Assembly (NCBI GenBank): GCA_016748015.1
Contig: JAAOMT010000046.1
Location: 644,697-708,696 of the forward strand
Length of the DNA: 64,000 bases
Reading direction: 5' to 3'
Source: Geosiphon pyriformis uo1
Taxonomy: Eukaryota; Fungi; Glomeromycota
Shown: positions 8,937-64,000 of the stretch, in pieces
Layout: every line of letters starts with the position of its first letter
Position numbering within the stretch: the first letter of the stretch is position 1
Notes under the pieces: generated by a model
The model's input: the letters and a program-made list of their open reading frames with translations, nothing else
Database searches by the model: none
What the model was told of the DNA's origin: nothing
Translations under genes and position numbers: made by a program

Positions 8937-8999
8937 GTTGGCAAGTCCCTTCACAAATTCTCCATATAGATTTGTTGCTAATTAAAATATAAATCAATA

Positions 9000-17500: not shown

Positions 17501-19241
17501 TTGTTAAGACACTCTTCCATTTATAGGGTTTGGGAATCATCAACACCCAAGCTTCCTTCCAACAATGGGGAATTAACTCACAAACCAAACAAATGTTCAG
17601 AAGATCCAGAAGCAAGTCTAGCACAGAACCATCACAATGTTTTCAAAGTTTATTTGAAATGCCAGACAAGCCAGCAGCTTTACCATCTGGCAAATTCTTA
17701 ATCACACACATTAAGTCATCCAAACTAATAGCATCCATCAGATCAGAAAAAGCATTATCATTGACATAATCCAAAAGCAGATATTGACGCTGTCACAAAT
17801 TAGGAACACTTTTTAGCATGGCTCTCTTCCTTGTCCAGCCCTCTATTATACCATTTATCTTGCTCTTAACTTCTACTGGGTCCAAAATCAAACTGTCATC
17901 AGAAACCAAATGATCTAACACCACTTTGTGGAATGGATGTTCCAAAACACTACAGATTGTGTGGTCTTTGTTGACCACAAAATTCTCCATTCTTCTCTCA
18001 ATAGCTAATCTAATGCCTGACTCCTCAGCTCTTAAAGACTCGGCAAGCTTGAAGGCATGATAAAACCTCTTTACACCACAAAAAGCAGAACGAACACAAT
18101 CCAAACTTGCACCAGAACTCACAAGATCCCAAACAACAGAAGCTTTGTTACTATCCAATGAAACCCAGGATCTTAACAGAGATTCAAATCTTCTAGATTT
18201 TGTTTTGCAAGAAGCCTTGACAATTTTTGAAACCAAAATTTCCAATTTATGCAACTTGAAAGACTCTTTGGTAAACATCTTATCATAACTCTTAAATCAT
18301 TTTTTCTTAAAAGTACCATTAGCTGAAAAAATCATCACTTTGCAAACAATATCTCACATAGCATCCAGATCAGAGAACTTTCTGGCTGTCTCAAACTCAT
18401 CCAAGAACATGGCAGTATTGGCCACAGTAGCATCCTTAAATTCACTCCATTTTGCTTCACTCGCACTTTTGATATCAAACTTCCAATGATCTTTATTTGC
18501 CTGCTTGTGTATTGAACTCAAATAGACATCAAGCAAACCACCCAAACCCACAGAAGCTGAAACTGCTTTGTGATCAGTATCAAAATAGTCTTCAACATTG
18601 GCCACACTATCATCTATCACAGCATTGACCAAACTTGAAGAAACGAGAATATAATTGAGAGCTCTAGTAACACCACAAGAATTGGACCACATAAGTGTTT
18701 TGACAAATAAACTTCCATGCAAAGAATCAACTAAACCCAAATCAAAGCACTTCTTAAGACTAGCATACTTTTGGGCCCTGTTTTCATTGAAATTGCCACC
18801 CAAAATAACAAAAGAAGACTCATTCACTGTCTTTGCAATAAGAGAGTTGATTTCACTAGCCTGAAAAAACTGAATCACTGACAAAGCACCAGCATAGAGT
18901 CCCAAAATTGACACTAAAAGATTATTCTTGAAAAGTAATTTGAGGGAGAGGAGTCAACCAGAAACTTTAGAAACTTTACACACATGTTTCACCAAAGAGT
19001 TGTCTATGATGATTGCAACACCAAAATCCAAATGACCAGAGTCCAAACCAAAAGTGAAAACCCAGACACCATCAAATTTATTCATGATCCATAGGCAGAT
19101 TTTGCCCCTCAACTTAGTCTCAGTAACAATAGAAATCAAATTGTTCATTTCTTTATGTCAACAAATAACATTATCTTGTTTCACAAGATTATTCATACCT
19201 CTAACATTGCACATGGCAATCTTCCAAACTAGACTGGTCAT
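14560..19241 (-). pseudogene. LINE-1 ORF2: APE endonuclease, RT, RNase H, C-terminal CCHC finger; many premature stops
   Basis: WKIAMCNVRG, ETKL, GNFNE, DTDH (APE); LTNTRPIALIETARKILSK, LWRIFYNPLL, GFVDNT (RT); VYTDGSL, ELQAIALALEC, WHKVKGH (RNase H); CLHCGEVESSDHFFVC. Confidence 0.93.
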
Positions 19242-21011
19242 TGAGAAAGAGGTTTGGATAATGCACTGCCAGCCAAAATTGAACCATCAAACCTTGCTGT
19301 AAGACTTAGAACCAAAGCAAAAAGTCCTTCCAATATGTTTTCCAATCTTTTTACTTCAGGAGAAGCAAAAGAGTCCAAAGTTGTAGCAGTTTCACCACTA
19401 GTGGCTTCACCCAAAACCTTTTCCATTACTACATCACCCACCTGATTCTGTGATGGGGGGGTTACTGACAGCTGACATCCAGGGCTAGGCTGAGAAACTG
19501 CCAGCATGAATAAGTCTAACCTCTTAGCCAACTTACCAATTTGTTCCATGAGGCTGGCAAGACTGCTTTCCAAAACAGCAAACCTCTTTTCAATATTACT
19601 TGTATCAGGAAGAATAGGCTTCATCTCTGAGGAGAAGCCAGAATTGATTAACACTTCATGCATAAAGAGAGGAAAAAAAACATTTCCACCAGCTATTTTA
19701 ATCCAAAAAACTCCACCAAAAGCAACAGGACAAGCAATTGAAACTGAATACTTGGCATAGATAGTTGCCAATCTGCTTTTATCTATGTCTGACAAAGGTC
19801 TGTGAGAACATTTTCCAGAGGAGGGATTCCCACCCACAGCACAGCCCAAAGATATATGATCCAATTTCCTACACTCAGCGTATTTAGAAAAACCCAAAAG
19901 AGACCAATATATATTCACACCCCTTAAAACTGGAGTAGTTCCCATGACAGCATTCAAGGAATCAGCTGATTCAAAACAAACAACAGCACATCTGGCTTGA
20001 GCATATGTAACAAGATGACAATCTATTGCACATGTTTTTCTATTCACAGAGCTAATATAATCCCAGATGTCATAAGCAGTCGTACCTATTGACAGAGTAT
20101 AGAGCAATGTCCTATGTTGATTTCTCAAGTTCCATGATTTTTTGTTGTGATTAGCCCTGGCCACACGCACAGCATTCTTCCCAATCAGAATAGACCAACA
20201 AGCTGTGATTAAATTAGTCTATTTATTCTTATTAAATTCAATTATAGTCTTTTGCCACAAACCTACCAACTGTATCTTGATTGACACCACCACACCAAAA
20301 TCAGATAACACAGCACACACAGCCTCAGTTGATGTTTCAACAAGAATTTTTTTTAATACTACAGCCCGATCTGAACACCTAGATGATTTTTTAAGATCAG
20401 AGTTTACCAAGATCTTCACTTCTTCAGCTTTTTTAGAAGCCTGCACCAAATTCAATTCAGACGTAAATGTTACTCTGACAATTCCAGCAAATTTTGAAGG
20501 GGTAGAGGCCCCCCCAAAACCATTGATTTTCGAAAATAATTTTCTAACAACCACAAGCTTTTCCTGAGCAGATTTTCCAACAACATTGCCCAAGCTGATG
20601 TTCAAGACGAAAAACTTCCTGACAGAAACATTGACCAAGCTTTTTAAAGAGGGAAAGAGAACCACAGGTTTGTCCAAGAGTATATCATCAACATTATCAC
20701 CCAAGAAGTCAATTTTTTTTAGTGGCCCTCTTGGTAAGAATCTTCAAACTTTTAGACATCTGCTCCAAGTCCTTTCCAGTGAAAGCATCACCATTTTCAT
20801 GATCAAAGCTGGTTTCTTCAACCAAACATTCTTCCTCCATGTCTACACTATCAGATTCAGTAGTATTACCAGTTTTAAAACCCCAAGAATGACCACTTGA
20901 TAATTTAGCAGCAACAAATTTCCTATTACCAATATTATCCTCCAAAATACCACCTCTCTTCTTCTTTCTGGACTCAGCAGACTTGACACCAATGTTGAAG
21001 CTGGGCTCCAT
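19238..21011 (-). pseudogene. LINE-1 ORF1 (RRM-like region, degenerate CCHC knuckle, coiled coil)
   Basis: ORF fragments 21011-20709, 20704-20219 and 20170-19238; knuckle (C>Y)AECRKLDHISLGC; homologous to 39762-38012 and 55607-56500. Confidence 0.85.
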
Positions 21012-22199
21012 AATTGACTTGTTTAGAACTGCAATATTAGGGCCAATAGTGGCCTTATAATCAAGTATAAATGGTTTAAAAATAGTAAACTGAATGATGA
21101 AAAACAGAAAAAACTTCTTTCAAAAAATATTATGGCTCTTTTTTTGGGAATTTGGAATGAACAAAAGAAAGATATAATATTAAATGGCTAATATATGTAA
21201 TAACTAATAAAAATTATGAGTTTTAACTATAACAATATTAATTTTTGGCCAATTTTTACTATTTTTATGTATTTAGTATTAACTATTTTTTTTTATAATA
21301 ATTTTTTTGCCAAGTTAGATTTGAATATTAATTAAATCATAATAGTTGCTAAAATTTTTAATACTAATTTTAAATTTATATTAATAAATAAGCAGAGTTT
21401 TAAAATTATAAAGACTTATTTTGAATATTTAAAGTTAAATTTAATATATATTTTATGTACTTTTTTAAATATAATGTTTTTATTATTTTCATTGAATTAT
21501 TTAAGTTTTTGTTTCTTTGCTAAGTTAAAAAGCATAATATTATTATGAATTAAAGTAATAAGCTAATAGATAATAAAAAAGAACAAAATTGTAGAATATT
21601 AAATTAATCAAAAAGAATTTAACTTTAAAGAATGAATTGAATAAGTATAAATTCAATATACAAAATTAATCTTATAAAATATTTCAGTTGCTAATTTTTC
21701 CAAAAAGTAACTAAAGAAATTAAAAATAGAGAAATAATTTATACTATTAACAAATAATAATATATTAGTATAATTCTATGTTTTATATTAGCACTCTTAA
21801 AATTTGATATTAACAAAAAAACCATAAAAACAAAATAAAAGCAATAAAATTACCAATTAATTTAAAAACAAAATTAAAAAAAAAAGATAAAACCATTTTA
21901 TAATTTACAACCAAATAATTTAAATTCTAATATTTATAACAATAATAGCATTTAAAAAATTTTTATTAGATACAACTTTTATGTAAAGTATTAATTTTTA
22001 AAATAACAAGATTTAAAATTTTCAAAAACTTAAAAGTTACAATAATAAAATATTAACAATAATAAAAATTGAAAAATAAAAAATAAAAAATAAAATAAAT
22101 ATAATTAAAAACTTTAAAAATTAAATTACTAATTTTAAAAACAATACAATTAAAAAAATTAACTAATTTGGCTTTAAAAATATTTTTTAAAATAATTTT

Positions 22200-23327: not shown

Positions 23328-26300
23328 TTTTTTTTATTATGTATTTAATGAGCAAAGCCCAACTGCTATCTAGTACATAGAACCAAACTAAGTGGCCCAA
23401 ACTAAACACAATTTATGCATTTTCTACATGTGACTAGCCACTTAGGCCAGACAAAGCAACACTATACACCTATATTAACATGGAAACTACCATCCAGACC
23501 AAAAAAAAAAACATGATCTGCGATAACTAAAGCTAACAGTAAAAGATTCTAACACACCAAGAAATCTGATCATACCATCCAATAACCCAGAATTTGCACA
23601 ACATAAAAGACTCAACAACACACCACTATTACCAACCAAACCACCCTTTTTCATACATACCCTAAACTCAGATCTCATCAACCACACTTTAGAACAATAT
23701 AGCTTGACCAATCTCCTCACCAAATCAACAACAAAGTTAACAGCCCTCTCTTTTTCATCAAAGATTTCAATAGCTTCCTCACACCACTTTTTTAACACAA
23801 AACTCTTGCATATTACCAAATACAAGCCAACATTCAATTGACAAAGATCAAGCATCTGAAAAACAGCAGAAGAAAATGAACAATGAGCACCAATTAAAGA
23901 AGCCCAGAAAGCAGAAGCCTTAAACAAAACCTCTCTTCAAATGTTAACATCCTGAGCACAAGTAAAGACATAATCTGGCAATTCTATCTCACCACACAAC
24001 AAACAAAACACACTAGAATACTTCTTATTATAAAGCCTCTTACAAACAGCAAAAAACAGTCTATAATACACAGCTTTTATTATATATGTGTACAAAGTGG
24101 CTGATTTCTGACTAGTAGACCTTGCAAGCATATGTGAATTGGAGTGTTATATCCTTGAGATGATGACCCAATCCACATTGCTAACCAACACCCTTGAAAT
24201 CATGTTGCAACCAGAACTTGCTTCCCAATAAGCCTAACAAACAGATCTGAACACATCCCAAACAAAGTGATGAGTATTGCCAGATACAGCCATGCTTTCA
24301 GTCATCAAAAAATATTCCTGCACACCTATGGATAAAAAACAGAAGAGTCTGCTGCTTCACCTACCAAAGTATTAGCCTTCATATTACCAACAACTCCAGA
24401 ATGACTTTTAACCTTAATTCAATGCACAGTAAGATCTTTATCCCAGACCAAATTGAAAATATGTCTTTTTTCCATCCAGTAATGATTATAAAAGTCAGAA
24501 GAAGCAAGTAACATCTCAGACACACATGTATCAATAGCAGCTTGACTGTCAAGATACAAATCTACACTACAAAAGGATAGAACACACTTCAAAGCCAAGG
24601 CAATTACTTGTAATTCAGCCATAGTAGAAAAAAGAAGGCCCCAAACTTCCACACCAACACCCATGTCCAGAACCAAAAAATATGCAGCTGCTCTACTCAT
24701 GACATTAGCAGAACCAGCATTCTTTAAAGAACTATCTGTATAGACCTTAAAAACACCAGACCAAACTTCATGCAAGCCATCTTGAATATTCAAAAACTCC
24801 TTGGAATCCAAAATGCTCAAGCCAGGCAAAGAAAAAAAAAACCATAGAAACAGATTCTAAGGAACTCTTATTATTCAAAAATTTAGAAGTGAGCACAAAT
24901 CAATAAGACACAGGACCTCTAGGATCTAGTCTTTTCCAGTGGCAAAAAGTTTTTCAGTCTATCATCTTCCCTTTCTTATTATACAGTCAGTCACCAAAGG
25001 CAACCCCAAAACACTTTAAAGAATGAACAAAATCAAAAAACAAAGACTTTCTCAAGACCAAGAACATCAAAAAGACACCAGGATCACAGAAAGCACTAGG
25101 TAACATGTTTGCCAAAGATAGCTTATTGTTCAAAAAAATCCTAATCACATTAGTTAAGAAATTGTTTACTGGGCTAACATGCAATCTAACAAGAAACCAT
25201 AAAGGATCCAAAGAAGCCCAATCCAAGACCTGCAAATCTAAGAACCAGTAACAAAACAAATGACCAAAAATACTATGAGCATTAGAAAATGAGATCACAG
25301 CAGCCAATTTACCCTTAGCTTGAATTTGTTCAAATAACTTTAAACCATATAAAGATGGATGATGCAAAGTCTCACTAGGGAAATTATGCAGCAAACACAC
25401 TTTAGATTTGAGACTCTTCCTAATCATAACATTTTATCTGTGACAAACATTCAATGAAACAAAACTAAACTGAGTTTGGTATCTAACTATAGACTGTAAG
25501 ACAGCCAAAACCAAGTATGAGAACTGTTTATCCATAACAGTTTTCTTGAGCAAAACATTAATGAAGAAACAAACATCAGAATAAGCTCTGATAACACTAA
25601 ACTTGGACAACTCTTCCATAGACAAAAAGATTCCCAAGTAACAATGTGTCTCACTTTTCTTGGCTATTGAAATTGGCTGTCCACAAATACTCAAAGAAGC
25701 TACTTTAACACCTTGATTGATGAGAATAGCTACTGTTTTTTCACTGTTAATAGAGATATTATTAATTACAAAAAACTTACTGGCAATGTTCAAAGCATAC
25801 TGAATAGAAGCCTGACAGTTCCCAATCCAAATAGTATTATCAACAAATGCACCAGCTGAAAAATAGGATGTTATCTTACTACCACTCTCAATTCTACTTG
25901 TCTTTAAAACAAATTTGGTATCAATCCTGTACTCACACAATTGCTTATGACATTTAACCTTACACAAGAGTAGATCATAAAAGATCCTCCACAAAAAGAA
26001 TGAAAAGACCTTGCCTTAATCCAATCTATCATGTACTCTGTAGCTATTCAACAGACCAAAATCAGTCATTATCCTGTTAATTCTATCCACATGTATATTT
26101 CCAAAGAACCTAATAAATCTGTTACACATCTTTATATGCTGCAAGCTAGCTTTTAGGTGATGTCATCCAACAGAATTATATGCTTTTTGTATGTCCTGTA
26201 AAACCAACCAGATTTTTCTATTCTTCTCAAGAGCATTTTCAATCACTGATTTGACAGCAAACACCAGAGACTGTATGGATGTACCCTTTAACACCAAAAA

Positions 26301-26930
26301 GTTATCACCCCAGAGAACATTGAACTTACTGCATGCCAATAAGATATGATCAGACAAAACTTTAGACAGAATCTTCTTAGCAGTCTCAATTAGTGCTATT
26401 AGTTAAGTGTTTATAAGAATGCCGTCCCAGTCATATAGCTTAGGAATCATCAATACCTATGCTCTCTTCCACAAAGTGGGCACTCCACCAACAGTCAAAC
26501 ATGTATTTAACAGCACCAATAAACACTCTAATACTTCTTCACTACTATGTTTCTATAATTTATTGGGAATGCCCGACAGGCCAGCTGTCTTGCCATCAAA
26601 CAGACTAACAATAACCAAGACCAATTCACTTATGCTAATTGTACACATTACACCAGAGAAGGCATCATCTCTAACATAGTCCAGTGATGCATATTGGTAA
26701 GTCCACAGATTAGGCAGCACCAGAAACACTGCATGTTTTCTCATCCAATCCTCTATGATCTTATCTACACCTAATTTCACTTTTTCTGGTTCTAAAACCA
26801 ACTCATCATTTATCACCAAGTGGTCCAACACCATCTTGTGAAATGGACAATCCAAAACACTCCTAATTATGCTACCTTTGTCCAGACAAAACTTTTCCAT
26901 GTATTGCTCGATTATATTCCTGATAGATGT

Positions 26931-27901
26931 TGTTATCAAAGGTTTTTGGTCTCTTCTTAGCTTTTGTATGTTTGTTGTAATGCTGTCAATTCATAACTAT
27001 GGGAAGTGTTTGAACCTCCGATAACTGAATTTTTATTTTCAAATTATCTCCTATAATTTGAACTGCTGGACTTATAAGTAGAATAACCAATTTTGTGCCA
27101 GTTACTTGTGTAGTTATATTGTAGTAGATGTCAACTCTTTCCCAAAAATTGCTTGTCTGGAAGCTCACTAAAAATATGTAGTTACTTTGCTGTGAAAGTC
27201 AACTCTTCTACAGGAATCTTGTCTATAGGCTACCCTAATGATGACAATAAGAAAATAAAAGAAAAGTAAAAGAAAAGTAAAGAAATTGAATTTTGTTGAG
27301 GGAAATGTTTTCTATCCAGGCCTGGAGTCACTAACAGTTTTACTGAAATTGGTAGCTAATCAATTTCAAAACGTTAGTTGGGTTTTGGGAATTTTCCAAG
27401 TGCAATAATTAAAAAATTTGGTTTTTCAAATTATTTGATATTTATTTCTTTTTGTGTGTATAGAAATGGTTTTAAGTAATAAATCTAAGGTAAGATATAT
27501 TTTCTCAAAGAGAGAAGCTTTTCTTTTATACAACTTGTTGTAACACTATTCTATGAACTTAAACTTTGCTATTTTCTATAATTTTGCTGAACTAAAGTTA
27601 TATTTTGGTAAACTACAAGTTATTTTTGCAAACTATTAGATATTTTGATGAACTATCAATTATTTTGGCAAATTTCTACAAATTTTGGCAAATTTTTTGA
27701 ATGTTACATAGTTCAGGGTATTGCATGATTGATCATCACAATTAGGTTATATTTGTGTTATGTACAAATTGGGTTATTAATTAAATGATAATTTTGGATA
27801 TTTTACTAATATAATAAGTGATAATTTGAAATGCTAATTAATGATAAGAATTATAAAGATAATTTCATGCTAAGCAATATCTCTAATTTTGTCTGGTAAC
27901 A
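26931..27901 (-). repeat. Gypsy-1 3' LTR (971 bp)
   Basis: Direct repeat of 35820-36790, about 95% identical by manual alignment. Confidence 0.97.
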
Positions 27902-28589
27902 TAACCTCCTTCTCAAAACTGAGCTCTGTCAAAGTCCAAGTACTGTCTGTAATTTCTAGATAGTAATCCAAGATTATTGAAGAAATTTGGTCCAAAAATT
28001 TTTGAAATTCCAGTTTTGTGAGCTTTCCAATGTATTGAATCTTCAAGGATTGTAAAATTGGGTTTTGTAGGACATTTTCACAGGTGTGAAATAGGTCATA
28101 AAGTCTAAGAGCAGCTCTTAGTTTATAATAACTGTTTGTAGGTCCAGCTGTTGTCTTGAATTTGTTGTGGAGTTGTTTCTGAATAGCTTCTTTTGTAAAG
28201 TTTGCTGTTGTAAGCTCCTGTTTTTGTTCATGAAGTGTTTTTCCAATGTAGAAGTATCTATATACTGGAGTATAGTTGTAGTTTTCTTCATTAAGACACA
28301 GTTAAAGTTTTTGTTGAATAGTAGCATTTGGTGGAATACTAATAGGAGTGAGCATTAAGTTTTCTCTTAAAGCAAGCTTTAAAAGTTCTGGCAAGTGAAT
28401 TTCAGAATAACTTCTTGTGTTCTTCTTATATGAGTAATATTTTCGTGAATTTGGGACTAAATTTGTGACTACTTCTGTTTGGGTATAATTAATGTGGTTT
28501 CCAGTAACAGTAATAGATAATTCAGGTATTGTTTTTAAAGCTAATATTAGTTTTTGGAATAATTGTTGAATGTTTTGAGAAATAGTCAT
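27870..28589 (-). pseudogene. Gypsy-1 ORF3, ~239 aa of unknown function, one premature TAA; runs through the PPT into the 3' LTR
   Basis: MTISQNIQQL...IQQKL*LCLNEE...YRYFYIGKTL...FTKEAIQKQL...KLRAALRLYDLFHTCEN...IGKLTKLEFQKFLDQI...EKEVMLPDKIRDIA*, all in one frame; homologous to 63434-64000. Confidence 0.75.
27902..27914 (-). other. Polypurine tract of Gypsy-1
   Basis: GAGAAGGAGGTTA on the minus strand immediately before the 3' LTR. Confidence 0.7.
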
Positions 28590-28718
28590 TATAAGAGATT
28601 TGAAATAAAAGAAAATTATTTTTGGTGTATGGGTTTTTATGTTATTTTTGTTTTTTTGTTTTTTTTTTGTGAGATTGTTTCTAAATTATAAGAAGATAAC
28701 TATAATAATAAATTTAAA

Positions 28719-31700
28719 TTAAGTGTTCAAGTTGGGAGGTTGTTCAATGACAACTATTGGTTCTAAATTCCAGGGAATATCTTCGGGATTGATTAAAGGA
28801 GAATGTGTACCAATTTGTGGAATTAATAGTTTAGGATTATTTTTGGAATTATAGTGTTTCAAACAATCTTCATGTGCAATTTTTGCTAGGATTTTGTTAT
28901 CAAATCTTAACTTATATGACCCATTGCCTAGAACTTCATGAATAAAGAATGGTCCATTTCATTTATTTTCAAATTTTCCACTCCATTGTTTTTCAGCTTT
29001 AGTTCTGTGTAAGAGAACTTTGTTCCCAATTTTAAATTTATTGGTGCCTGGTGGCAATTTTTTGTCATGCTGTTCTTTTTGTTGAGCTTGGGAGTATTCA
29101 ATATGGGTGGCTGATATTCGTTGTTTTCCTTCCAGTGTGCTAAACAGAGTGTAGGCTCTTCATTAAAGTGTTTCCTGAAAATTGTTTTTATCGATTGGTT
29201 GTTTCCACTGTGAAACTAATTGGTAACGTTGCTATCCTTCCATAAGTTAAATCAAATAGTGTGTGTTTTGTGGTATCTTGTTTTAGTGTCTTATATGCTA
29301 GTAATACTGATGGAATAAAGATATCCCATTCTTGCTTAAAATCAGTTGAGACTTTGGCTAATGATTCACACAGTGTCCTATTAAAACATTCCACAAGCCC
29401 ATTTGTTTGTGGATGGTAGGGTGAAGATAATGGTCTCTTGACATTAAATTGTTCACAAATTTCCTGGATTAAATTGTTCACAAAATGTGTTCCTTGATCA
29501 GATAAAAGTTTTATTGGACATCCATGTCTATAAATGATGTCTTCATAGATGAAGTTTGCTACTGATTTTGCATCTGCTCATTGAATGGCTCTGGCTTCAG
29601 GCCATTTGATGAGATAGTCTACAGCTACTGCAATATAATGGTTTCCTTGGTTTGTGATAGGTAGTGGTCCAACTAAATTGATACCAACTCAGTCAAAAAG
29701 CTGTCCAACTTTGATTGAATTTAAAGGTTCTGTAGGGCATGTTCCTCCTTTTTTTTGACAACTATTACAAGAGTCGACATATTGATATATGTCTCTTCTC
29801 ATTCGGGCCAAAAGTAGTGTTCTAATGTTCTTTGAGTGATACTATCTTTTCCTAAATGTGTTGATGAAAGATCCGAGTGCATGTTGTATAAGATAGTTTT
29901 TTTTTTATGTTCTTGTATTAATCGAAGCGGTTTGTCTGGATTTCTGGAGTTTCGATAATAAATAATGTTGTTGTGTAGAAAGTATTATTTGGCTTGTTGT
30001 TGTAACCAATGTTTTTCATCTGGGGACCAATCTGTTGGGATTGTTAATGTCTCCAAATATTGTTTAAGATTGTTGTAGTTTTCAGGGTTCATTGTTTGTC
30101 ATTTTGTTGCTGTTATTTCAAATGGATATTGGTTTTGTGTTCTAATCTTGCCTTATTCTTAAGAGACAATCAACATTGGTGTAGAGTTTTCCTGGTTTAT
30201 GGTGTACAATGTATTGGTAGTTGGCTAAAAATCCTGTCCATTGGGTTTGTTTGGTATTTAGCTGAGTGTTTTTGTTCTAAAGCCATTTGAGTCCAATATT
30301 ATCAGTGATAATATCAAATTCCTTTGGCCGAAGATAAAAATTGAAATGATGTAAGGCCCAAATTACAGCTGTTGTTTCCAATTTAGTGGCAGGATAATTC
30401 TTTTCGGCTGGTTTTAATGTTCTGCTGGCATAAACAATTATTCGCTCATTTTTTTGGTCATCTAATTGTGACAAAATGGCACCAAAAGCAATGTAAGAAA
30501 CATCGGTGGCTAGTCGAAACCAGTTACTAAAGTCTAGATAGACGAGAATTGGAGCTGTTGTCAGCTTTTCTTTGAGAATTTCAAAAGCTTTTTGGTGTTC
30601 GGTAGTCCATTTGTATTCAATGTTTTTGGTAGTGAGCTGGTTGAGAGGTTTTGCAATTTCCGAAAATCTGTTAATAAACTTTCAATAGTAGGATGCTAAT
30701 CTGATAAATCCTCTTAGTTCTGTGGTATTTTGAGAAGTTTTGAAATTTTTAACAGTGCTGATTTTTCCGGGGTCAGATTTAATTCCATCTTTGCTAACAA
30801 TGTGACCAAGAAAAGCCAAACTTGTTTTTCTAAAGTAGTATTTTTCGATGTTCAGTTTCAATCCTGCTTTCTGTAATCATTGAAAAACTTCTCGCAAGTG
30901 TTTTAAGTATAGTTCAAAAAATGGTGAATAAACATCAGTATTATCAAGATAAACAACTACTGATTTCCAAAGGAGGTTTTTGTAAACAACATCCATAAGT
31001 CTTTGGAATGTTGCTGGTGCATTGCATAATCTGAAAGACATTATGTTAAACTCGTAGTTTCCTTCTTGAGTGGTGAATGCTGTTTTGGGTGATCTTTGGA
31101 ATTCATGGCAACTTGCTAGTATCTATTCTCTAAATTTAATATCGAGAAGTATTTGGACTTCCCAAGGGCATCTAACATGTTATCAATTTGGGGAAGAGAG
31201 TAGGCATCTCCAATGGTGATGCTGTTGAGTTGTTGATAATCAACACAAAATTGTATCTTTTCATTTTTCTTTTTAACTAGGACCACAGATGAAGCCCATG
31301 GACTCATCGATAGTTGAATAAGCCCATTGTTAAGCATCTATTGCACTTCTTCTTGGATAAATTGGTAACTTTCTGAAGCAACTCGGTAGGCTTGTTGTCA
31401 TCTTGGTTTGGCATCTCTTGTGTAGATTTGGTGTTGAACCAAATTGGTTCTTCTTAAGTCATTGTTGTTTTTGGCAAAGATATCAGCAAACTCTGCAATT
31501 AGTTCTTTGAGCTGGTTTTGTTGTTGTGGCTCAAGTTGTCCTATGTTGATTCGAGATAGTTTTTTCATAACAACATGGTAATTTTTAGAGCTGGGGTTTG
31601 GGTTGATTTTTGGTAGTGAATGTCCAATAATTTCAGAGAAATTGGGGACTGTTTGGGGTAATTCTTGTTGAAAGATATTACTGTAAATAACTCTAATTTC

Positions 31701-34700
31701 TAAGTTATTTAATAAAACTATGGGAAAATTGTTGGGATTGTAAAAAGTAACTCGGATTTTTTTTGTTCCTTCTGGAATATAAATGTTTGGAATTGAGATA
31801 TTATGTTCCAAGTAGATTTGTTTGTCGGACTTAAAAATTTGTTGTGTAGTTGTTGGCTTTTCACAAGTGTAAATTTCAGGATGTTTTCCAAAGAGTGAAA
31901 TGGTAATTGGTTGTGAAAGTCATAAAATCTGGTAAGATTCTTTCTGTTCATTGAAGGCTATGTTTACTGGAACTGTAAATCGTCCAGTTGAACCAAAATC
32001 TTGGGTTCCTCTTTCACTTTTTTCTAATAGTTCTCTTTGATTGACTAATTGTAAACCCGAAATGTTGATTAAAGGTAAATAAATGGCTTGGGCAATTTTC
32101 TCGGCATGTTCAATCTTAAATGGCTTGTCAGTTTCATTTTGGAGTATTACTGTTATGTTATCAATATATCCAGCATCGATTATTTCTCCTCTGACATTGA
32201 TTTCTTTGCTTGCCAGAGAGGACTGGGAGGCAATTTGAACCATTGTTCTTGGTGAGATTTCGAGAGCAATTTTAAGGTTAATTTTTGTGAGAGATTTGGG
32301 TTTGAGAACGAGAGTATTCTTGTCTGGATATTTTAAGTCATATCCAGTATTAATTTCATGTGCTTTTTCAGGTTTTATTTCTTGTCCATTGTTGTTGAAG
32401 TATTTGAGTTGTAAGGCAGACTGATTTTTAATAAGATAAATGGGTGTTGTTTCAATTTCTTCTGTTGCTTCCAGTTCCCCAGATTCAATTTTGTTCTTAT
32501 CACTTTCACTGGGCAAGGGAATGCTAAGAGTGTAGTATTCAGGACACTACTGTTCATTACAAGGCATAATGCATTCTTCACATAGCCTAATGTTTATTTG
32601 CTCTAATTGTTGAATTTGAGCTTTTTGGATTGGATAGGTGTAACTTACAATTTGGTGGTAGACTTCTACTTCATCTTTGTAATCAAATCCAGCTAATTCC
32701 ATGGTGTATTCAATGTATTCTGCTTCCTTTATTTGATGAACATCTTCTTTGGTAGCTCTATTAATTAATGCCATTGCTAGGTCAAAAATCATCTTAGCAT
32801 CATGGGGGTAATAATAAAATTTGTTGAAAGCACTGTTGTATGCCACATTAAAAGGTGTTCCTCTTTTTACTTTTTCTGAAATTGATAAAGCATATTAACA
32901 GGTCTAATTGCAAACTCCTTCTCTTATTGCTACATCAATCCAATTGCATTCTTCCAGTAGTATATCTTCACAAGTCAAACAAGGGGTGTTGTCCCATTTT
33001 CCGCTTCTTTTTATTAGATGGTCCCATCATTCTCTGTGGCAAGCCTTGCAGTAATAAAAAGTATGATTTTCATATTTTTCTTCAGATGAAATACAGGCTC
33101 TCATTGATGAGAGTTTTTTGTGGCAATCTTTGTATTTGAGTGGAATGTAAGGGCATTGTTTTCGTGGTTCTGGTTTTGAATAGGGAACATTCCATCTGGT
33201 TGTCACTGGTTTTTTTGTTTCAAGAGAATCATTTGTTAAAAAGTACTGTTGTTCAGTTTCATCAGCCCAATTGGAGGTTGATCCAAGTGCCATAAATGTT
33301 TCAATAATGGGTTTTTCTTCTTCTGGTTCAAATTCAAAAGCTGGGGCTTTTTCAGAGTGTTTGTTCAATGTACCACAAGTAACGGATACTTGGGCATGTT
33401 GTCCTTAATAGGAGAGTTGTAATTTTTGGGTTTCCCAGTCTAATTTTGCATTGGCTTTTTGGAGCCAATCATTTCCGACAAGGGCTTGATACTGGAGTGT
33501 ATTTATTATAAGAACTTTGACTAGAATGGTGATTCCATCAAGAGTAAACGGAAAATTGTCAATTTCTTCTACAGAAGTCTTTTTCATGCCATTAGTAGTA
33601 ATGATTACTGTCTGAGCTGGTTGGTCAACATTTTTCTTTAACTGTTGTATCAACTGGTAGGTAATGATACTTCCAGTGGATCCACTGTCTAGGATCAAGC
33701 AAATTGCTATTCCTTCAATTTTTGCTTCAGTGTACATAACAGTAATTGCTTTTTGTTCATTGGCAGCTGCATTGCTAAACAAGAATAGTGACTCATTTGC
33801 TTTGAACTCAAAAGGAAATATATCTGAAAGGTTGGCATTTTCAGCAATTCTGGTTGGTGGAATTGTGGTAGGAGTATAAGAAGGATTTTGTTGTTGTGCT
33901 GCAGCTCTACCTTCTGAGAGTGCAGGATGGTAAAAATCTTGTTTTTCAGGTATTGTAAGATAGCTAAGTTGAGTATAATAATGGGAGGGTCTTGGCTGAG
34001 CTGGATTTCAGGAAATTAATTGGTTATTTGGGTTGATTCTGTTGTTGTTTGTTGTGAATCAGTTTTGTGGTGCAAATTGGTTTTGTTAAACCAATTTTCG
34101 AGCAGGTACTTGGTAATGTTGAATGGGTTGTCGATACTGTTGTTGTATTGGTTGTAGAGCAGGTTGATAGTAGTCAGTTTGATATTGTGGTCTTGGTGAA
34201 TAGTAAGCTGATGGTAGTGATGGTTGGTAATAAGATTGTTATGGCAAAGGATAACATTGATTACTCCTGTTTTGTTGGTCTTGTTGTAGCTTTTTGCAAT
34301 CTCTTTTCCAGTGGCCAGAGATTCCACAATAATGGCAATTCTGAGGCTGGTTATTAGAGGATGATATGAAGTTGTTTTGATTCCATCTTTGGGGTGGTTG
34401 ATATCTTTGGAGTTGCTGTTGTTGTTGGTTGGTGAAATAGTTTTCAACCTTTTTTGTGAGTTGGTCAATTTTCTCTTCAGCTACTGAGCTGGTCTCTCCA
34501 ATGGCTAAGTTCACGAGTTTTGTATGATTGGCTTCTTCCATGGCCATTTCATATCTTTTTGCATGCTGAATGGCAGAGTTTAAATCTTCTGGGGCATGTG
34601 GGCAAATTTTTTTAATCAGTTTATCCTTTAAACCATCAATAAATTGATCTAAGACTTGAGCATTGGAATAATAATTATTAGTTTCAAGTTGGCAAATTTG

Positions 34701-35774
34701 TCTGAGAAGTTTGTTGAATTTCCCAATATAAGTCATGACAGATTTGAAGATTTCTTGTTTGATATTGCAAAAACAATTTCGAAGTGTGATTGAGGTATTG
34801 TTATCGGTGAATTGTTCTAAAAAAGCAGTTTTGAAAGCTGTTCAGTCATTAAAAGGGGTGGTCAAGTTTTTAAACCATTCACCTACTGTTCCTTTGAGAA
34901 AGTAAGGAATTGTTCTTAACATTCTGGCAGCATTCCATCTATTTGCATCTCCAGCTTTAGTAACTTGGTTGAGCCATTCTTGGGGACTGGTCTCAATGTC
35001 TTTTCCATTAAATTCAGAGATTTTTGCAATGTATGCTGTCATCTTGTCTTCTTTGTTTTCACTGTCTATTGATTTTTTTTCAGATATTTCAGAGTCATTT
35101 TCTTCATTTGCTGCTGTCTCAGAGTGTTCACTTCAATTTTCAGCTAGAAAGTCAAGGAGATTGGAACTAGTTTGAAGGGGTTTTTGTTGTCTGGTAGGAC
35201 TTCTGGGTGATGTAAAATCTTCTAGTCTTGCAAATTGATTTAAGAGTAAATTAGGTGTTTGTGCTTGTACAAGTGAAGCTGGAAAAGGTGTAATAGTAAG
35301 TGGAAGTTTTGAACTGGTTCCTTGTTCAGGTGTTTGTAAGTGTTTGGCAGTTGTTTTTGGTAGTATTAGAGTATTTGTGGTGGTTTTTGAGTATTGCTTC
35401 AATTTTTGTTTGTTTTTGTTGTTTGTTTCTGTCTCTGATTCAAAATCAATAGAGTATTGAGACTGCACTGGATATGTTTCTTCACAGTACTTGATAATGT
35501 TAAAATTAAGTTCTTGAAAGTAAGTGGCAAGTGTTTCACTGTTAAGGTTTTCAGTTCCCAACTGTGAATAGTGTACTAAATTATTATAAAGATTGCTTCT
35601 AACTTCTGAGATATTGTAATTTCCAAAAAAATAATTGTTAATGCGGTTTTCAATGTATTGGTATACTGATTTTTTGACAACTTTAATTCCGTCTGGAATG
35701 TTGAATCTTTGCTTGCAGTGGGTGTAAATTGACTGGTAATACTCTAGAGTTGTTGTGTCTGGTGTGGTCGCCAC
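28719..35774 (-). pseudogene. Gypsy-1 single gag-pol polyprotein: capsid, CCHC knuckle, protease, Cys-rich insert, dUTPase, RT, RNase H, integrase
   Basis: WLNQVTKAGDANRWN; CHYCGISGHWKRDC; LILDSGSTGS; GYDLKYP, ASQSSLA, IIDAGY, KIAQAI, RGTQDFGSTG; YLDNT; YPATKLE; YHPQTNGLVE; ends PIVVIEQPPNLNT*. Fragments from 35774 to 31116 share one frame. Confidence 0.93.
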
Positions 35775-35805
35775 TTTGAAGTTGTTTTTGCTGTGTTGTT
35801 TTTAT

Positions 35806-35817
35806 GGGAGAGTACCA
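35806..35817 (-). other. Primer-binding site of Gypsy-1 (TGGTACTCTCCC)
   Basis: TGG-initiated sequence 2 nt after the 5' LTR end; cognate tRNA not identified. Confidence 0.7.
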
Positions 35818-35819
35818 AA

Positions 35820-36790
35820 TATTACCGGAGGTTTTTGGTCTCTTCTTAGCTTTTGTATGTTTGTTGTAATGCTGTCAATTCACGACTATGGGAAGTGTTT
35901 GAATCTCCAATAACTGAATTTTTATCTTCAAATTATCTCTTATAATTTGAACTGCTGGGCTTATAAGTAAAATGGCCAATTCTGTGCCAGTTACTTGTGT
36001 AGTTACATTGTAGTAGACGTCAACTCTTTCCCAAAAATTGCTTGTCTGGAAGCTCACTAAAAATGTGTAGTTACTTTGCTGTGAAAGTCAACTCTTTTAC
36101 AGGAATCTTGTTTGTAGGCTACTCTAATAATGACAATAAGAAAATAAAAGAAAAGTAAAAGAAAAATAAAAAAATTGAATTCTGTTGAGAGAAATGTTTT
36201 CTATCCAGGCCTGGAGTCACTAACAGTTTTACTGAAATTGATAGCTAATCAATTTCAAAATGTTAGTTGGGTTTTGGGGATTTTCCAAATGCAATAATTA
36301 AAGAATTTGGTTTTTCGAATTATTTGATATTTATTTCTTTTTGTGTGTATAGAAATAGTTCTAAGTAATAAATCTAAGGTAAGATATATTTTCTCAAAGA
36401 GAAAAGCTCTTTTTTTATACAACTTGTTGTAACACTATTCTATAAACTTGAACTTTGCTATTTTCTATAATTTTGCTGAACTAAAGTTATATTTTGGCAA
36501 ACTACAAGTTATTTCTGCAAACTATTAGATATTTCAGTGAACTATCAATTATTTTGGCAAATTCCTACAAATTTCGGCAAACTTTTTGAATGTTACATAG
36601 TTCAGAGTATTGCATGATTGATCATCACAATTAGGTTACATTTGTGTTATGTACAAATTGGGTTATTAATTAAATGATAATTTTGGATATTTTACTAATA
36701 TAATAAGTGATAATTTGAAATGCTAATTAATGATAAAAATTATAAAGATAATTTCATGCTAAGCAATATCTCTAATTTTGTCTGGTAACA
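35820..36790 (-). repeat. Gypsy-1 5' LTR (971 bp)
   Basis: Direct repeat of 26931-27901; terminal inverted repeat T(G>A)TTACC...GGTAACA. Confidence 0.97.
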
Positions 36791-39700
36791 ATGTTTTCTC
36801 AGCCAGTCTTGACTTATACATATTGGATTTTTTGTATTTCCTTTTAACAAGAGATAAATGTTTAAGAATGTTCATCTGTTTCTCACCAGCCTGAACCATG
36901 CTAGTAACAATGAAAGCCTTATTAGTATCTAATATTAACCACTTCTTTACAAGATTATCAAAACCAAGAATGTTATTTGAACTCAATCTTTTAACAATTT
37001 TTACAACCAGCAACTCAAGCCCCAGAAATTTAGAGGACCACTTATTTCTCGAACACTGAAATTCACTGAATTAATGCTTAGAGAAAATTTCATCCACAGA
37101 TTCCACCATCACCCCCTTCAGTAATGACCACATTAAGTCCAAATTATTATTAGCAACAGCAACAAAAAACCTATCCTTCACTCTCAAAAGTCTAGCAAAA
37201 GAACAATCTCTATAACATAACCACTTGGCATCATTTGCATCCTTGATTTTAAACTTCCAACAATCTCTGTTAACCTGTTTTCACAAGCTATTCAATTGAA
37301 CATCTAAGAGCCCACCCAAACTAATAGACACTATAACAGCATTATGATCAGTATCAAAGAAATCAAAAACAAAAATGACTTTATGACCAGCCATTGCAGA
37401 TGACAAACTTTCATTTACAAAAATATAATCAATAACTTTCATGGTACCCTTCGAGTTGTTCCAAGTGAAAGCTTTAACCAGCAAGTGTCTACTAAAAGAA
37501 TTGACCAAGTCCAAATTTGAACAGGACTTAAAACTTGCATTTTTCTTAGACCCATTCTCATTGAAATCTCCATCTAGCACTACAAATATGAAAGAATTAA
37601 TAGCCTTAGCAATAAAAGAGTTGATCACAGAAGACTAACTAAATTTGGTTTTAGCAGAAGCTTCAGCATACAGAATCAAGATTGCCACTAACAGCTTGCC
37701 TTTAAAAAAGAGCCAAATAGAGATAAGATAACCAGAGACTTTTTCAATTTTAGTAACATGACATGCAAGAGAATTGTTCAAAATAATTGCCACCCCAGCA
37801 CCAAGAAAACCTTTGTCCAAACCAGAAGAGAATATTTTTATCTTATCAAATCTGTTCATGATTTATGATTTTGTACTAGGCCTCAGTTTTGTTTTTATAA
37901 CAATAAAAACCATATTATCAGACTCTATGTGCCAACAAACAATGTCTTTCTGCTTGGCAGGGACATTAATACTCTGAACATTACATGTAGCAAACCTCTA
38001 CACTAGCTCCATTATTGAGAAAAGGAAGCAGCAAGAACCAAACCAGCATTGTCTATTTTGGCCAAAAAGCCCATAACTGTAATTGCAAGATTTTTCAAAG
38101 TGTTCTCCATTTTCCCAATAACAGAAGAATCGAAAACTACTGCTCTCACAACAGTCTTATCACCAGTGGCCACACCTGAACCCTCACTTATCACTATATC
38201 TGTTCTTTGATTCTGTGATAAAGGAATCACCAATGGCTGACATTCAGAACTAAGCTGAGAAACTGTTAGCTCGGGTGTTTCTAATCTCTTAGCCAGCATA
38301 TCAACATGTTCTGCAAGACTGGTAAGACTGTGCTCAAGAGCAGCAAACCTATTATTGATTTTTGTTGCAACTGATAGAGATGGCTTTATTTCTGAAAAAG
38401 AACCAACATTCACTGAAACAACTTGGCCAGAGAAAGAGGAATAAAAAGACTCACTAGCAACTTTCATCCAAAAAAGGCCACCAAAAAAAACAAAATAAGC
38501 AACTGGAGCAGATCATTTGGCATATATTGCAGCCAGCCTGTTTTTATCTACATCTGAAAGCACCCTATGCAATAGACTACCAGAAGAAATCTTCCCACTT
38601 TTAGCACAGCTTAATAATATATGACCCAATTTTCCACATTTGGCACATCCAATAGAAACAAAACTAGCCCAATGTAAATTTATGCTCCTGAACACAGGTG
38701 TGGTTCTTATGGCAGTATCCAATGATTCAGCAAAATTGAAACAAACAACAGTGCACCTGACCCAAATATATGTAACTGAATGGTAATTAATAACACAAGT
38801 TTTCTCCAGATATCATGAGCATTAGTTCTCATTGGCAGTGTGTAAAACAGTGCCTTATGATAATCCCTTGTATTTTATGTTTCTTTGTCTAAATCAGCTT
38901 TGACAACATGCATGACATCCTTCCCAATTAGGATGGACCACTTAGCTGTGACCAAATCAGCATGATCCAATTGCTTAAATTCTACCACTGCTTTCTGTCA
39001 CAGTCCTACCAACTACATCTTGATCAACTTAATTATTCCAAACTCAGATAGCACAGTACACACAGCCTTAGCCAATGTTTCAATTAGAATTTTCTTAACC
39101 ATCACAGCTTAATTTGAATGACCAGTTGATTTTTTAGAATCAGTGTTTACTAAAATATCTACTGCTCTTGTCTTTTTTGTAGCCTGCGCCAAATTAGATT
39201 CAGAAGTAAATAAAGCATAGATGATTCCTAAGAATTTTGAGAGGATAGAGGCCCTCCCAAAACCATTGACTTTTGAAAACAATTTTCTGACCACCACCAG
39301 CTTTTCCTGAGAAGATTTTTTAACCACCTTATCCAGCTTAATATTCATAGCAAAAGATTTTTGGACCAAAATATTAACCAAGTTTTTCAAAGAAGGAGAA
39401 AAAACTACAGGATTGTCTAAAAAAATGTTATTACTATCATTGCTCAAGAAGTCAATTTTTCTTAGTGGTTTACTCAGAGCTCTTTTGGTCTGAATTTTTG
39501 AACTTTTGGGAGTTTGTTCCAAGTTTCTATCAGTAAAAGTGCCACCTTCCCCATAATCAAAGCTGGTTTCCTCAACCAAAAATTCTTTCTCTATGTCTAC
39601 ACTATTCAATTCAGTAGTGTTATCAGTTTTAGAACTCCAGAAATGACCACTTAATACCATAGCAGCAACTTTTTTATTACCAATACTATCCTCCAGAACA

Positions 39701-40960
39701 CCACCTCTTTTCTTCTTTCTGGACTCCACAAATTTAACACCAATACTAGAACCAGACTCCATAATAAACTTATTTAGAACAGCAATACTAGGGCCAATAG
39801 TGGCCTTGTAATTACAAAACAGTTTGGATTTATCGTACTGAATTGTGGAAAAACTTCTTTTAGAAAAAACTTTTAACTCTTTCTTGGAAATTTTGGATGA
39901 AGGAGAGAAAGAAGTTTTTTTTTATTGTTTTAAACATTTAATAAATAAAAATACAAATTAATTATTAAAAATAAACAATAATATATTATTACAAATTAAT
40001 AAACTTTAATTTAATTAAAATAACAACACTAAAAACACTAAAAATATTTTTAATATTATTAAAAAATATATTATAAAGTACTATAGAAATTGAAAAAAAA
40101 ATAAATTTATTACAAAAAATTTTACAATTTTAAAAATAATCAAGCAGAAAAAACTACTAATAAAAACTTTAATAATAGTAATTAAAAAAATCTTAAAACA
40201 AAATTTATATAAAACAACTTTAAAAATTAACTTAAATTTAACAAAAACAATTTAAATAAAAAATTAATTAAGGCCAATTTAATTTTGAACATAGTATTAG
40301 ATACAAAAAAAAGTTATTTATTTAAAAAATTTTAATAATTAAAAATTGTTTTTTAAACATTATTAAAAACAGCACTAAAGAATAAAAAAAAAATATTTTT
40401 ATTTTTATTTAATTAATTCAATTTTTAAAATTAGATAAACTTAATTAAATAAAGACATATTTAAAAATATGTTTTATTTTGTTTTTAAAATCAGTAATAA
40501 TTTGTTAAAAAACACTATATTTAATAATATAATTAATAATTAATTTTGGTTTATCTTTAAAAATATATTATTATTGTTATTATTTACATTAAAAAAAATT
40601 TAATATAATAATAGCAAATATAAATAACTACTGTTAATTTTTGGTTTTTAGATTTTTAATTATTTATAAAGTAGTAATAGTAATAATTTAAAAAAAGTAA
40701 AAACAATATTAAAATTAATTTTAATGTGTTTTTTAAAAAAAACTTTAACAAAAAAAAAACCAATCAAAAGTGAAAAAAATGCTTTAAAAGCTATTAAAAA
40801 CAGCTTTTTATTATCAATATTTAAAAAAAACATTGCTAAGATGTTTTGTTTAACTGTTTTAATAACAAAAAATTTTTTTATTTATTTATAAGAAAAGTAA
40901 TATTTAAAACTTTTTTAATCATAATCATTAAATTTAAATATGTCTTATTTTGTTAATATT

Positions 40961-54742: not shown

Positions 54743-54762
54743 NNNNNNNNNNNNNNNNNNNN
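54743..54762. other. Assembly gap (20 N) flanked by a 154-bp exact duplication
   Basis: 54589-54742 equals 54763-54916. Confidence 0.95.
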
Positions 54763-61300: not shown

Positions 61301-63353
61301 GAGTTAAAATTTCTAGGACATGTAATTAGCAAGAATGGAGTTAAATTTGATCCAGATAAAGTACAAAAAGTCAAGGATTTTCCAGCCCCAATCAACTTCA
61401 GAGAATTACAAGAATTTCTAGAATTGACAGGATATTATTGTCAATTTGTTAAAAGTTTCTTGAACATCACAAAACCACTTTATCAATTATTGTCCAAATA
61501 CATACTGTACTTGTGAAAAGAAAATCAACAAAAAGCATTTGACTATCTCAAGCAGTGATTGATCACATCCCCAATCCTGATTTACCCAGATTTCACTAAA
61601 TGATTCATTATTGCTATAGATGCCTCGAAAAATGCTCTAGGAGCAGTCTTATCACAAATAGGACTGAACAATAAAAAACACCCAGTTGCCTATGCTAGTT
61701 GCAATACTAGCCCAGCAGAAAAAAATTACAGCACAACAGATCTGGAATGTCTTGCCATTTATTAGACCATACAGACTTGAAAACATTACCTCAGTCAACC
61801 ATTTGATCTATATACCAACCACAAAGGACTTATTTGGTTACTCAACAATCCACAACTAGAAGGAAAATATGCAAGATGGAGTACTTATTTGCAACAATTC
61901 CTACTCAAAGTCTATTACAAAGAAGGATCCAAGAACACCAATGCTGACAGTTTGTTGAGGATGCCACAAACCTAATCCCAGACCCATGAACACACTCACT
62001 TATCAATAACTACATCAGTACCTATTGACACTATGTTTCAAGGAGATATTATCTTAACAGGAACAAAGTATCATATAAAAACAAGCCTGAAATTATTTTA
62101 TTCAAGACAACCAACTATATTGATAAGAATGCTGAAACCACTTCACCTCACAATAACTAATTAAGGATAGTGAAAAAAAAACTATACTATATAAAATGCA
62201 CTCAGATCCGACATTAGGACACTTTAACAAAGATACTACCCTTAAAAGAACATTAAACTTATACTATTGGCCAATAATATACAAAAACATTTTCGAATAC
62301 GTGCTCAATTGTAATGCATGCCAGCAAAGAGGAGAAGCAAGATCAACAGAACCACTTCGACCTATTCCAGTTGGAAATCTATTTGATAGAATTGGGATTG
62401 ATTTGGTTAGTCCTCTCTCAATTACATCCAAAGGAAATCAGTATATCGCTATAGTCATTGATTATCTTACAAAATGGCCAGAAGCCAGAGCAATTCAAGT
62501 GGCTGATGCCAAAACAGTAGCCGAGTTTGTACATCAAGACTTAATTTGCTGACATGAGTGTCCGAAAGAATTGTTATCTGATCAAGGAACACATTTTGTT
62601 AATAATATGCTAACAGAATTAAGCCAATGGTTTGGTATAAAATGTCCTTTATCATCACTATACTACTCATAAACTAACAGACTGGTAAAACAGTTTAACC
62701 GAACACTGTGTGAAGCACTAGCAAAAATAAGTTAAGAAAACGAACAAGAATGGAACCTATTCATATTTTCAGTACTCTTTGCATACTAAACACTAAAGCA
62801 AAATATGACACACTTCACACCATTTAAACTAGTCTATAGAAGAAAAGCTATATTACCTATTAAACAAGAAATATTGTTCTACTCAACAGAAACAATTACT
62901 AAAGAGAATTTTAAAGCTACCTTGTACCACAGAATGTATCAGCTAATAGAAACATTAGAAAACAATCGAAAAACAGCAGCTAATAACATTAGTAACACTC
63001 AAGAACAACAAAAAGAAAGACATGATAAACACCTACTAGAACAACCAATGGAATTCAAGATTGGAGACCAAGTACTGTTATATTGTATGAAAGCTGAAAA
63101 ACAGTGGAATGAAAAGTTTGACCCAAAGTGAGATGGTCTATTTCATATACACGAAGCATTAGGAAATGGAGCTTACAAATTACGATTAGAAGACAAGATT
63201 TTAAAGAAAGTAGTGCATAGAAATCAGTTAAAAATTTATCATGCAAAACAGAAATCATCATCATCAATACCTCAACTAGGAACACAAATTTCATTAATCA
63301 GACCAGAAGATATACCACGAGATCTAAAACCAATCATCATTATCGAAATGTAG
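58317..63353 (+). pseudogene. Gypsy-2 pol (protease, Cys-rich insert, dUTPase, RT, RNase H, integrase); gag and PBS missing
   Basis: LILNSGSAGS; CVNCEKKLSTMGAC; FDLQY..ASQSSL..IIDADY..KIAQAI..GFGSSG; YLDDT; NYSTTDLEC; H..GH..CNACQ; DRIGIDLV; ends PIIIIEM* (63351-63353). Confidence 0.93.
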
Positions 63354-63433: not shown

Positions 63434-64000
63434 ATGGATCTTTCAGATCAAATTTTAAATTATCTAAACAATTATTTGAAACAATTCAAAAGTTGACATC
63501 TCAAATAGAAATAACAATTGATAAAAAAGAGATATAATACAAAAATAAGAGCAGGAGAGAGGAGGACAAGAGTTCAATTAAAACTAAACGTTTTTTCCTT
63601 TACCTACCACCCAAAAGGCAATGTTGGAGAAAAAATTGCCTTCAGGCAGAAGATAGAAAAGAAGAAGACAAAGAATGAGAAAAATGTTACAAAAAAAGAT
63701 ATTTGGTCTCCGAGCTCAAAGAAATAAAACAAGCTTTAGTTCATGGAACCAAACTCTCCGAAACAGGGAAGTAGACACTTGACAATGCTCAGGAATGGAA
63801 AAAAAAACTTTCTCCAGCTTATTGGTTCTACAAAATTAGAGAACAGCTTGACTTGAAAACACCATATGAAGACCTCAACCAGAAAATGTTCAACAAAGAA
63901 GCAATACAACAAGTAAAAAAATTCATAGGAAAAAACAACCTGACCCTATATTACAAAGCAGCATACTAACTATATGCCGTTTTCTAACATTGCCCAAATA
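63434..64000 (+). pseudogene. Gypsy-2 ORF3 (degenerate; runs off the window)
   Basis: MDLSDQILNYL...; final frame AYWFYKIREQL...MFNKEAIQQV...YYKAAY*LYAVF*HCPN matches Gypsy-1 ORF3. Confidence 0.7.

Follow-up and report, generated by a model that had tools for sequence, protein, structure and literature searches.

ORF3, a probable non-envelope accessory gene shared by divergent Gypsy elements of Geosiphon pyriformis

The Gypsy elements and their separate integrase

The window, i.e., the whole 64-kb stretch of Geosiphon pyriformis DNA that was analysed, carries two Gypsy elements, Gypsy-1 on the minus strand and Gypsy-2 on the plus strand, together with three host genes. The following features can be differentiated:

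7608-8981, minus strand: host gene, GYF-domain protein
26931..27901, minus strand: 3' LTR of Gypsy-1 (971 nt, TG...CA), starting with TG at 27901 and followed by the target-site copy ACAT
27902..27914, minus strand: polypurine tract (PPT) of Gypsy-1, read in frame by ORF3
27915..27935, minus strand: conserved DNA motif before the PPT of Gypsy-1, of which different ORF3 subfamilies use two frames
27870..28589, minus strand: ORF3 of Gypsy-1, 239 codons plus stop, with one internal TAA (28302-28304)
28590..28718, minus strand: spacer between integrase and ORF3 of Gypsy-1, 129 nt, G-poor, unstructured, without TATAWA
28719..30092, minus strand: stand-alone integrase ORF of Gypsy-1, with its own ATG, stops and frameshifts; its stop codon ends at 28719
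30142..35800 (start approximate), minus strand: gag (CCHC)-protease-dUTPase-RT-RNase H region of Gypsy-1, ending in TAG at 30142, with stops and frameshifts
35806..35817, minus strand: PBS-like stretch of Gypsy-1 starting with TGG, 2 nt past the 5' LTR, assigned from sequence only
35820..36790, minus strand: 5' LTR of Gypsy-1 (971 nt), preceded by ACAT; this copy ends in TA
~41700-44100, plus strand: host gene, RRM protein
49180-50817, plus strand: host gene, DUF676 esterase-like protein
61986..63353, plus strand: stand-alone integrase ORF of Gypsy-2; the RNase H stop ends at 61975
63434..64000, plus strand: ORF3 homologue of Gypsy-2, with its ATG at 63434, a frameshift near codon 9 and 5 stops, its frame cut by the window end
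30092-30144 (minus strand), 61973-61988 (plus strand) and 772-801 of the metagenome contig L001: RNase H/integrase junctions, A/C-rich and unstructured

Gypsy-1 shows the marks of a Ty3/Gypsy element (Metaviridae): LTR ends, a target-site duplication, a PPT, a PBS-like stretch and the order gag-PR-RT-RH-IN. Pfam families appear in the Gypsy order, namely gag with a CCHC knuckle, protease, dUTPase, RNase H and integrase, and the RT was recognised via its similarity to that of L001. The duplication consists of 4 nt, ACAT (26927-26930 and 36791-36794); 5 nt are usual in fungal Gypsy elements. The two LTRs present 47 differences over 962 aligned nt, every one of them a transition, and the observed/expected ratio of CpG is 0.06-0.24 in the elements versus 0.69-1.01 in two host genes.

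The first-pass annotation had treated pol as a single frame. Actually, the integrase starts at its own ATG, past the RNase H stop. Gypsy-2 has the same gene order as Gypsy-1, and a third element is provided by L001, the contig of the metagenomic protein P0192 and one of 2 loci obtained from 256 pattern matches, in which RT-RNase H and its stop are followed by the integrase, a spacer of 316 nt, an ORF3 with unbroken frame, the PPT and the start of an LTR. Compared with the window elements, L001 shows an identity of 52-55% in RT-RH and of 32% over 133 aa in ORF3, and the solved structure closest to its RT-RH is that of Ty3 (E 6e-47). In the three elements (3/3) the integrase occupies an ORF to itself, opened by an ATG of its own and located 49 nt (Gypsy-1), 10 nt (Gypsy-2) and 24 nt (L001) from the RNase H stop and, in consequence, these are three-ORF elements of an unusual kind: (i) gag-PR-dUTPase-RT-RH; (ii) integrase; and (iii) ORF3. 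The usual Ty3/Gypsy arrangement, with the integrase inside the Pol polyprotein, is found in none of the three, which represent a variant layout. In fungal LTR elements two ORFs are usual (PMC3248453). Furthermore, the gene models P0196, P0215 and P0222 contain integrase tails fused to ORF3.

Two other features of the window elements are worth noting. One, located between protease and dUTPase (~32550-33400, minus strand; ~58950-59600, plus strand), is a stretch rich in Cys that is 28-31% alike in both; it has no Pfam family in the pieces scanned and is possibly a zinc-binding insert. The other consists of short tandem arrays with 10-nt and 20-nt periods, which lie in both Gypsy-1 LTRs (27601-27700 and 36490-36589) and at 57312-57471 (plus strand), where the array is likely part of the Gypsy-2 5' LTR.

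The ORF3 reading frame and its relatives

Past the integrase stop at 28719, an ATG-initiated frame of 720 nt had been described that would be broken by one TAA, probably derived from CAA, and would run through the PPT into the 3' LTR. For Gypsy-1, this description is correct: the frame comprises an ATG at 28589 and 239 codons plus a stop that lies 32 nt inside the LTR, with the internal TAA at codon 96. A CAA>TAA origin fits the relatives, since the TAA column holds Gln in 90/126 and Leu in 36/126 of those that match the local pattern, out of 241 stored proteins. The ORF3 start codons of Gypsy-1, Gypsy-2 and L001 all have A at -3 in their sequences, and the spacers between integrase and ORF3 are G-poor. 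A TATA box of its own for ORF3 is not supported: TATAWA occurs in 2/3 spacers (chance 0.31-0.84) and is absent in Gypsy-1.

The C-terminal tail varies among subfamilies. Within the 241 stored proteins, a tail of the EEIMLP type passes through the PPT in 95, and one of the GAQF/Y type is present in 24. The latter is the alternative frame of the pre-PPT DNA motif (the off frame reads DFDRAQF-stop in Gypsy-1 and FAGAQS-stop in L001), so that other ORF3 subfamilies stop just before the PPT, in a different frame of the same motif. Since the motif is readable in two frames, read-through of ORF3 into the LTR is optional and no feature of the family, and the conservation of the C-terminus reflects the DNA, namely, the motif at the PPT. 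This motif contains GAGCTCA (window 27902-27935, minus strand; L001 3085-3115) and is probably a cis element, without a significant hairpin (z 0.05 and -1.43). In complex retroviruses, accessory genes such as nef and the bet gene of foamy viruses also extend over the PPT and U3. ORF3 has in common with them a frame that runs through the PPT into the LTR, but its overlap is optional and some subfamilies stop before it.

When the Gypsy-1 ORF3 was used as query, with X at the break, 197 proteins were matched at E<=0.001 among 363 candidates. Among the matches listed (120 of 197), all are hypothetical proteins of Geosiphon pyriformis, many of them exactly 239 aa long and 80-87% identical. The best match is the window protein with 18 residues missing around the stop, as would result from a spurious intron in the gene model. 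In turn, the Gypsy-2 ORF3, of which 166 codons (the 5 stops counted among them) are readable before the window end, matched 40 proteins among 53 candidates, all of them from Geosiphon and including the full-length 244-aa P0125. Natural copies with an open frame thus exist, and the consensus reconstruction proposed initially is unneeded. Taken as transposon genes, these matches (197 + 40) explain at least ~200 "hypothetical proteins" in the Geosiphon annotation.

The existence of a Gypsy-2 homologue had been put forward from the two window copies. Compared directly, these do not reach significance (BLASTP E=0.052; 17% for profile versus single sequence), whereas their open-frame relatives are 26% identical over 101 aa (E=1e-6) and the family profiles match with a hhalign probability of 95.3% (E 2e-8) over 197 columns that include the N-terminus, the best of 30 block shuffles reaching 5.3%. 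The homologue accordingly stands on relatives and profiles, not on the window pair, and significant similarity between both ORF3s is a property of their families. One of the motif matches cited in its favour, FTKEAIQ/FNKEAIQ, is five residues out of register in multiple alignments and may be partly coincidental. As judged from these alignments, ORF3 homology spans divergent Gypsy subfamilies.

A profile search of 1.84 billion representatives yielded 74 hits, and the origin was looked up for the 29 of them that are <55% identical to three references: 27 come from Geosiphon and 2 are metagenomic (P0191 and P0192). No named Rhizophagus or other fungal protein appeared among the profile hits looked up. 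In the core, other ORF3 subfamilies are identical to P0008, a natural copy with an open frame, at 17/77 to 33/106 positions (~18-31%), and the sister subfamily 1b at 83/106. A further homologue search returned 119 Geosiphon proteins in the best 120 of 212 hits. There are presumably also hypothetical Rhizophagus proteins with a tail similar to that of ORF3. No relatives were found in viral contigs or prokaryote genomes. A tblastn against phages gave a best E of 0.4, and the comparison with PHROGs a best E of 0.0012, for one member and a group without assigned function.

Anatomy, conservation and possible role of ORF3

The expectation that ORF3 would have neither a signal peptide nor a transmembrane segment agrees with a hydropathy scan. 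The best 19-residue Kyte-Doolittle mean is 0.44-1.29 in 8 representatives and 0.81-1.5 in 29 full-length relatives; the usual threshold for a transmembrane segment is 1.6. In the first 35 residues of the 8 representatives, the best 11-residue value is 0.2-1.5 (from the hydropathy scan, not SignalP), with no N-terminal hydrophobic core. There is no conserved furin site either (RxxR occurs in 3/8 representatives and not in the window subfamily), and each ORF3 has 1-3 cysteines, i.e., no cysteine-rich ectodomain. Among the 17 Pfam families matched by 27 ORF3 members at E<=1 there is no Env family profile, and no family passes its cut-off, so that no confident match to an env or other known TE domain was obtained.

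The env of errantiviruses, to which the position of ORF3 had been referred, is the wrong frame of reference, as the element is fungal: the named ORF3 relatives come from Geosiphon, which belongs to Glomeromycotina and is no insect. Errantivirus Env also occupies the position of third ORF, but it is an F-type glycoprotein counted from 900 nt (PMC13486581), whereas the fungal ORF3 has 720 nt and neither signal nor anchor. ORF3 is very probably a real, functional, non-env accessory gene. Its position between integrase and 3' LTR would also suit a factor for movement between nuclei or hyphae, with the role of env and without its anatomy, and Drosophila Gypsy elements do rely for their infectivity on small ORFs other than env (sORF2, mdg1 clade; PMC13486581). 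This reading is very improbable in view of the absence of a hydrophobic segment from the 8 representatives and the 29 full-length relatives.

According to the alignments, ORF3 consists of (i) an N-terminal helix plus beta-hairpin; (ii) a variable basic linker; (iii) an amphipathic helix; and (iv) a conserved core with the motifs Y/F-x-I/L-G, G-x-x-N and A-x-x-R-L-Y-x-x-F. A basic cluster is present in the N-terminal half of 7/7 representatives checked; the pI ranges from 5.4 to 9.7 across the relatives, and net charge is not conserved. AlphaFold2 performed poorly on the window family (mean pLDDT 44), and a confident model came from the homologue P0191 (27 sequences; ~27% identical to P0008), with block-mean pLDDT of 81-93 over residues 81-160. 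This model has helices at 88-96, 105-122, 129-144 and 149-163, with the G-x-x-N turn ahead of the last one, which carries 1-4 basic residues, depending on the subfamily. In the model, helices 129-144 and 149-163 with their turn resemble a helix-turn-helix. Among the 50 best structural hits there are ParB, Spo0J, KorB and a sigma-factor fragment (Z 3.7-4.7; rmsd of 2.5-4.9 A over 56-88 residues), but these hits are tied with unrelated helical bundles, fall within the common arrangements of the tool and are at noise level.

Foldseek, one of the checks proposed in the first-pass annotation, returned no PDB match at E<=0.001 for either ORF3 model. Nor was a significant match obtained from a viral fold library (best E 0.064), from the VIA wide fold search (best Z 5.0) or from the VIA second look (best Z 4.8); a search of the PDB by sequence gave 0 hits for one query and 5 hits, with E values of 0.36-1, for another. 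The part of ORF3 that these fold searches covered well is residues ~75-200. DUF1016_N (the YhcG N-terminal domain), a domain without known function (PMC1189080), was tried and rejected: it scored 17.3 bits at best versus a cut-off of 32.8, and hhalign against 11 YhcG-type N-termini gave 1.1%, in a different region. In any case, hydropathy, model and profiles agree with the original description of ORF3 as a soluble, mainly helical accessory ORF common to divergent Gypsy families.

Selection was approached through the subfamilies 1a and 1b, represented by 25 proteins each, which are gene models and, in consequence, pre-selected for open frames. Both differ in 48 of 197 scored columns with a mean BLOSUM of +0.35, in contrast with -0.52 for the rare within-family variants (n=279; p=3e-4). 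The 1a/1b differences affect 16/26 linker columns (62%) versus 10/59 and 4/39 core columns (10-17%), and the rare variants show an even distribution (0.017-0.030 per site). There are, then, signs in these protein sequences of purifying selection while the elements replicated actively, with neutral decay afterwards, and the conservative 1a/1b changes that spare the core lend support to the earlier idea that ORF3 is kept by selection across subfamilies. The dN/dS between subfamilies, also proposed initially, is below 1 (~0.34-0.36 for ORF3 and ~0.15 for integrase, at codon level versus L001 and Gypsy-2) but unreliable, because synonymous sites are saturated. The pN of ORF3, 0.49, is only ~2 SD below shuffled controls (0.55 +/- 0.02), and its protein alignment score of 141.5, versus 30.5 for the best of 200 shuffles, shows homology and not a rate.

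These data also bear on the idea of ORF3 as a relic or captured host fragment with no present role, amplified as a passenger. Both window copies are indeed broken and many gene models are fragments, but gag, pol and integrase are equally broken in the window copies, the frame is open in lineages only ~20-30% identical, the changes observed are conservative and largely avoid the core, and the fold prediction is a confident one. Of all the accounts considered here, this is the least probable.

The reading we prefer, with a probability of roughly 0.4, is that ORF3 may be a soluble trans-acting factor, i.e., a nucleic-acid-binding regulator that would promote expression or replication of the element. 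As suggested by the model, the soluble helical protein would bind the DNA or RNA of its own element via the predicted helix-turn-helix-like core, and this binding would favour its expression or replication, by transactivation or by counteracting silencing, in a genome that mutates its repeats. Both of these functions, like the targeting that the first-pass annotation also offered, are candidates. Translation of ORF3 might take place from a subgenomic RNA or by reinitiation. A motive for such a factor lies in the CpG loss of the elements and in the all-transition differences between LTRs.

The split integrase invites a different proposal, namely, that ORF3 is a translational transactivator like TAV/P6 that lets ribosomes reinitiate on the integrase ORF past the gag-to-RNase H frame. 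Split integrase and ORF3 do occur together in 3/3 elements, with spacers of 49, 10 and 24 nt and unstructured junctions, and in caulimovirids the division of the polyprotein among separate ORFs was made possible by the acquisition of TAV (PMC5902531). On the other hand, such short spacers suit plain termination-reinitiation, for which no protein is needed (PMC5902531); the three elements belong to one clade and are not independent; and no caulimovirus protein is among the 17 Pfam families matched by 27 members at E<=1. The proposal is clearly unlikely. Its fuller version, drawn by analogy, in which the elements would be tricistronic and ORF3 would be their own TAV-like reinitiation activator for the integrase, outside Caulimoviridae and with an unclassified fold, is improbable. 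The likeness to TAV/P6 is one of architecture only, with no sequence match: both are the last ORF of a reverse-transcribing element with a split polyprotein (PMC5902531). As of 2018, according to the same source, a TAV-like factor was not known outside Caulimoviridae.

That ORF3 works together with integrase or Gag and directs integration or the assembly of particles, in replacement of the chromovirus chromodomain, is possible, if on the whole unlikely. ORF3 adjoins the integrase in every context seen, although such adjacency is expected for any gene added to an LTR element. No chromo family was found at E<=0.01 in the four integrase-tail pieces scanned (pieces split at stops), two of which have an SH3_Tf2-1 match, at sub-threshold level only.

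Known elements and other sequences of the window

The additional ORFs most comparable to ORF3 are the aORF-3S ("env-like") of plant Athila and Bagy2 elements (PMC7264820), with the same position, the same sense and many copies; ORF3 is likewise a sense ORF between pol and 3' LTR present in many copies. Some aORF-3S have transmembrane segments, and that of Bagy2 is spliced (PMC7264820), whereas ORF3 has no hydrophobic segment, is fungal and lies past a stand-alone integrase; the sequences of both were compared through Pfam and profile search alone. Regarding fungal Gypsy elements, a dUTPase between PR and RT, as in Gypsy-1, is described for PosPlaTy3-5, and an unassigned "add. ORF", comparable to ORF3 as an extra ORF, for fungal Gypsy elements (PMC2864245); the available text of that source describes no split integrase, and Glomeromycotina are absent from the corresponding part of its species table. 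A literature search, judged by titles, the start of abstracts and the passages available, found no description of ORF3. Extra ORFs that follow pol and precede the 3' LTR are, then, already known, and what is new is the ORF3 protein family and the three-ORF layout.

LTR elements make up 41.2% of the G. pyriformis genome (PMC11952901). As a conserved protein of no known family, ORF3 offers one specific candidate explanation of the success that a lineage of retrotransposons may have in an early-diverging fungus in spite of silencing, and the natural open-frame copies make its role testable.

The rest of the window contains further repeats. A LINE-like element is present in two copies, at ~14560-21100 and at 23480-26930 + 36791-39900 (all on the minus strand), and the second one seems to have been the insertion site of Gypsy-1. 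Both copies have what we take by eye to be endonuclease-, RT- and RNase H-like motifs, with no Pfam match in the pieces scanned. An older Gypsy element has left remains of its RT-RH and integrase at 11850-13270 (minus strand), which are very AT-rich and have an identity of 30-52% with L001 (tblastn). Two pairs of long, AT-rich, decayed inverted copies (40148-40920/52841-53942 and 21843-22101/54092-54350), 71-85% complementary, are probably old repeats. Finally, a 20-N assembly gap (54742-54762) is located between the copies of a 154-nt exact duplication, which is likely an assembly artefact.
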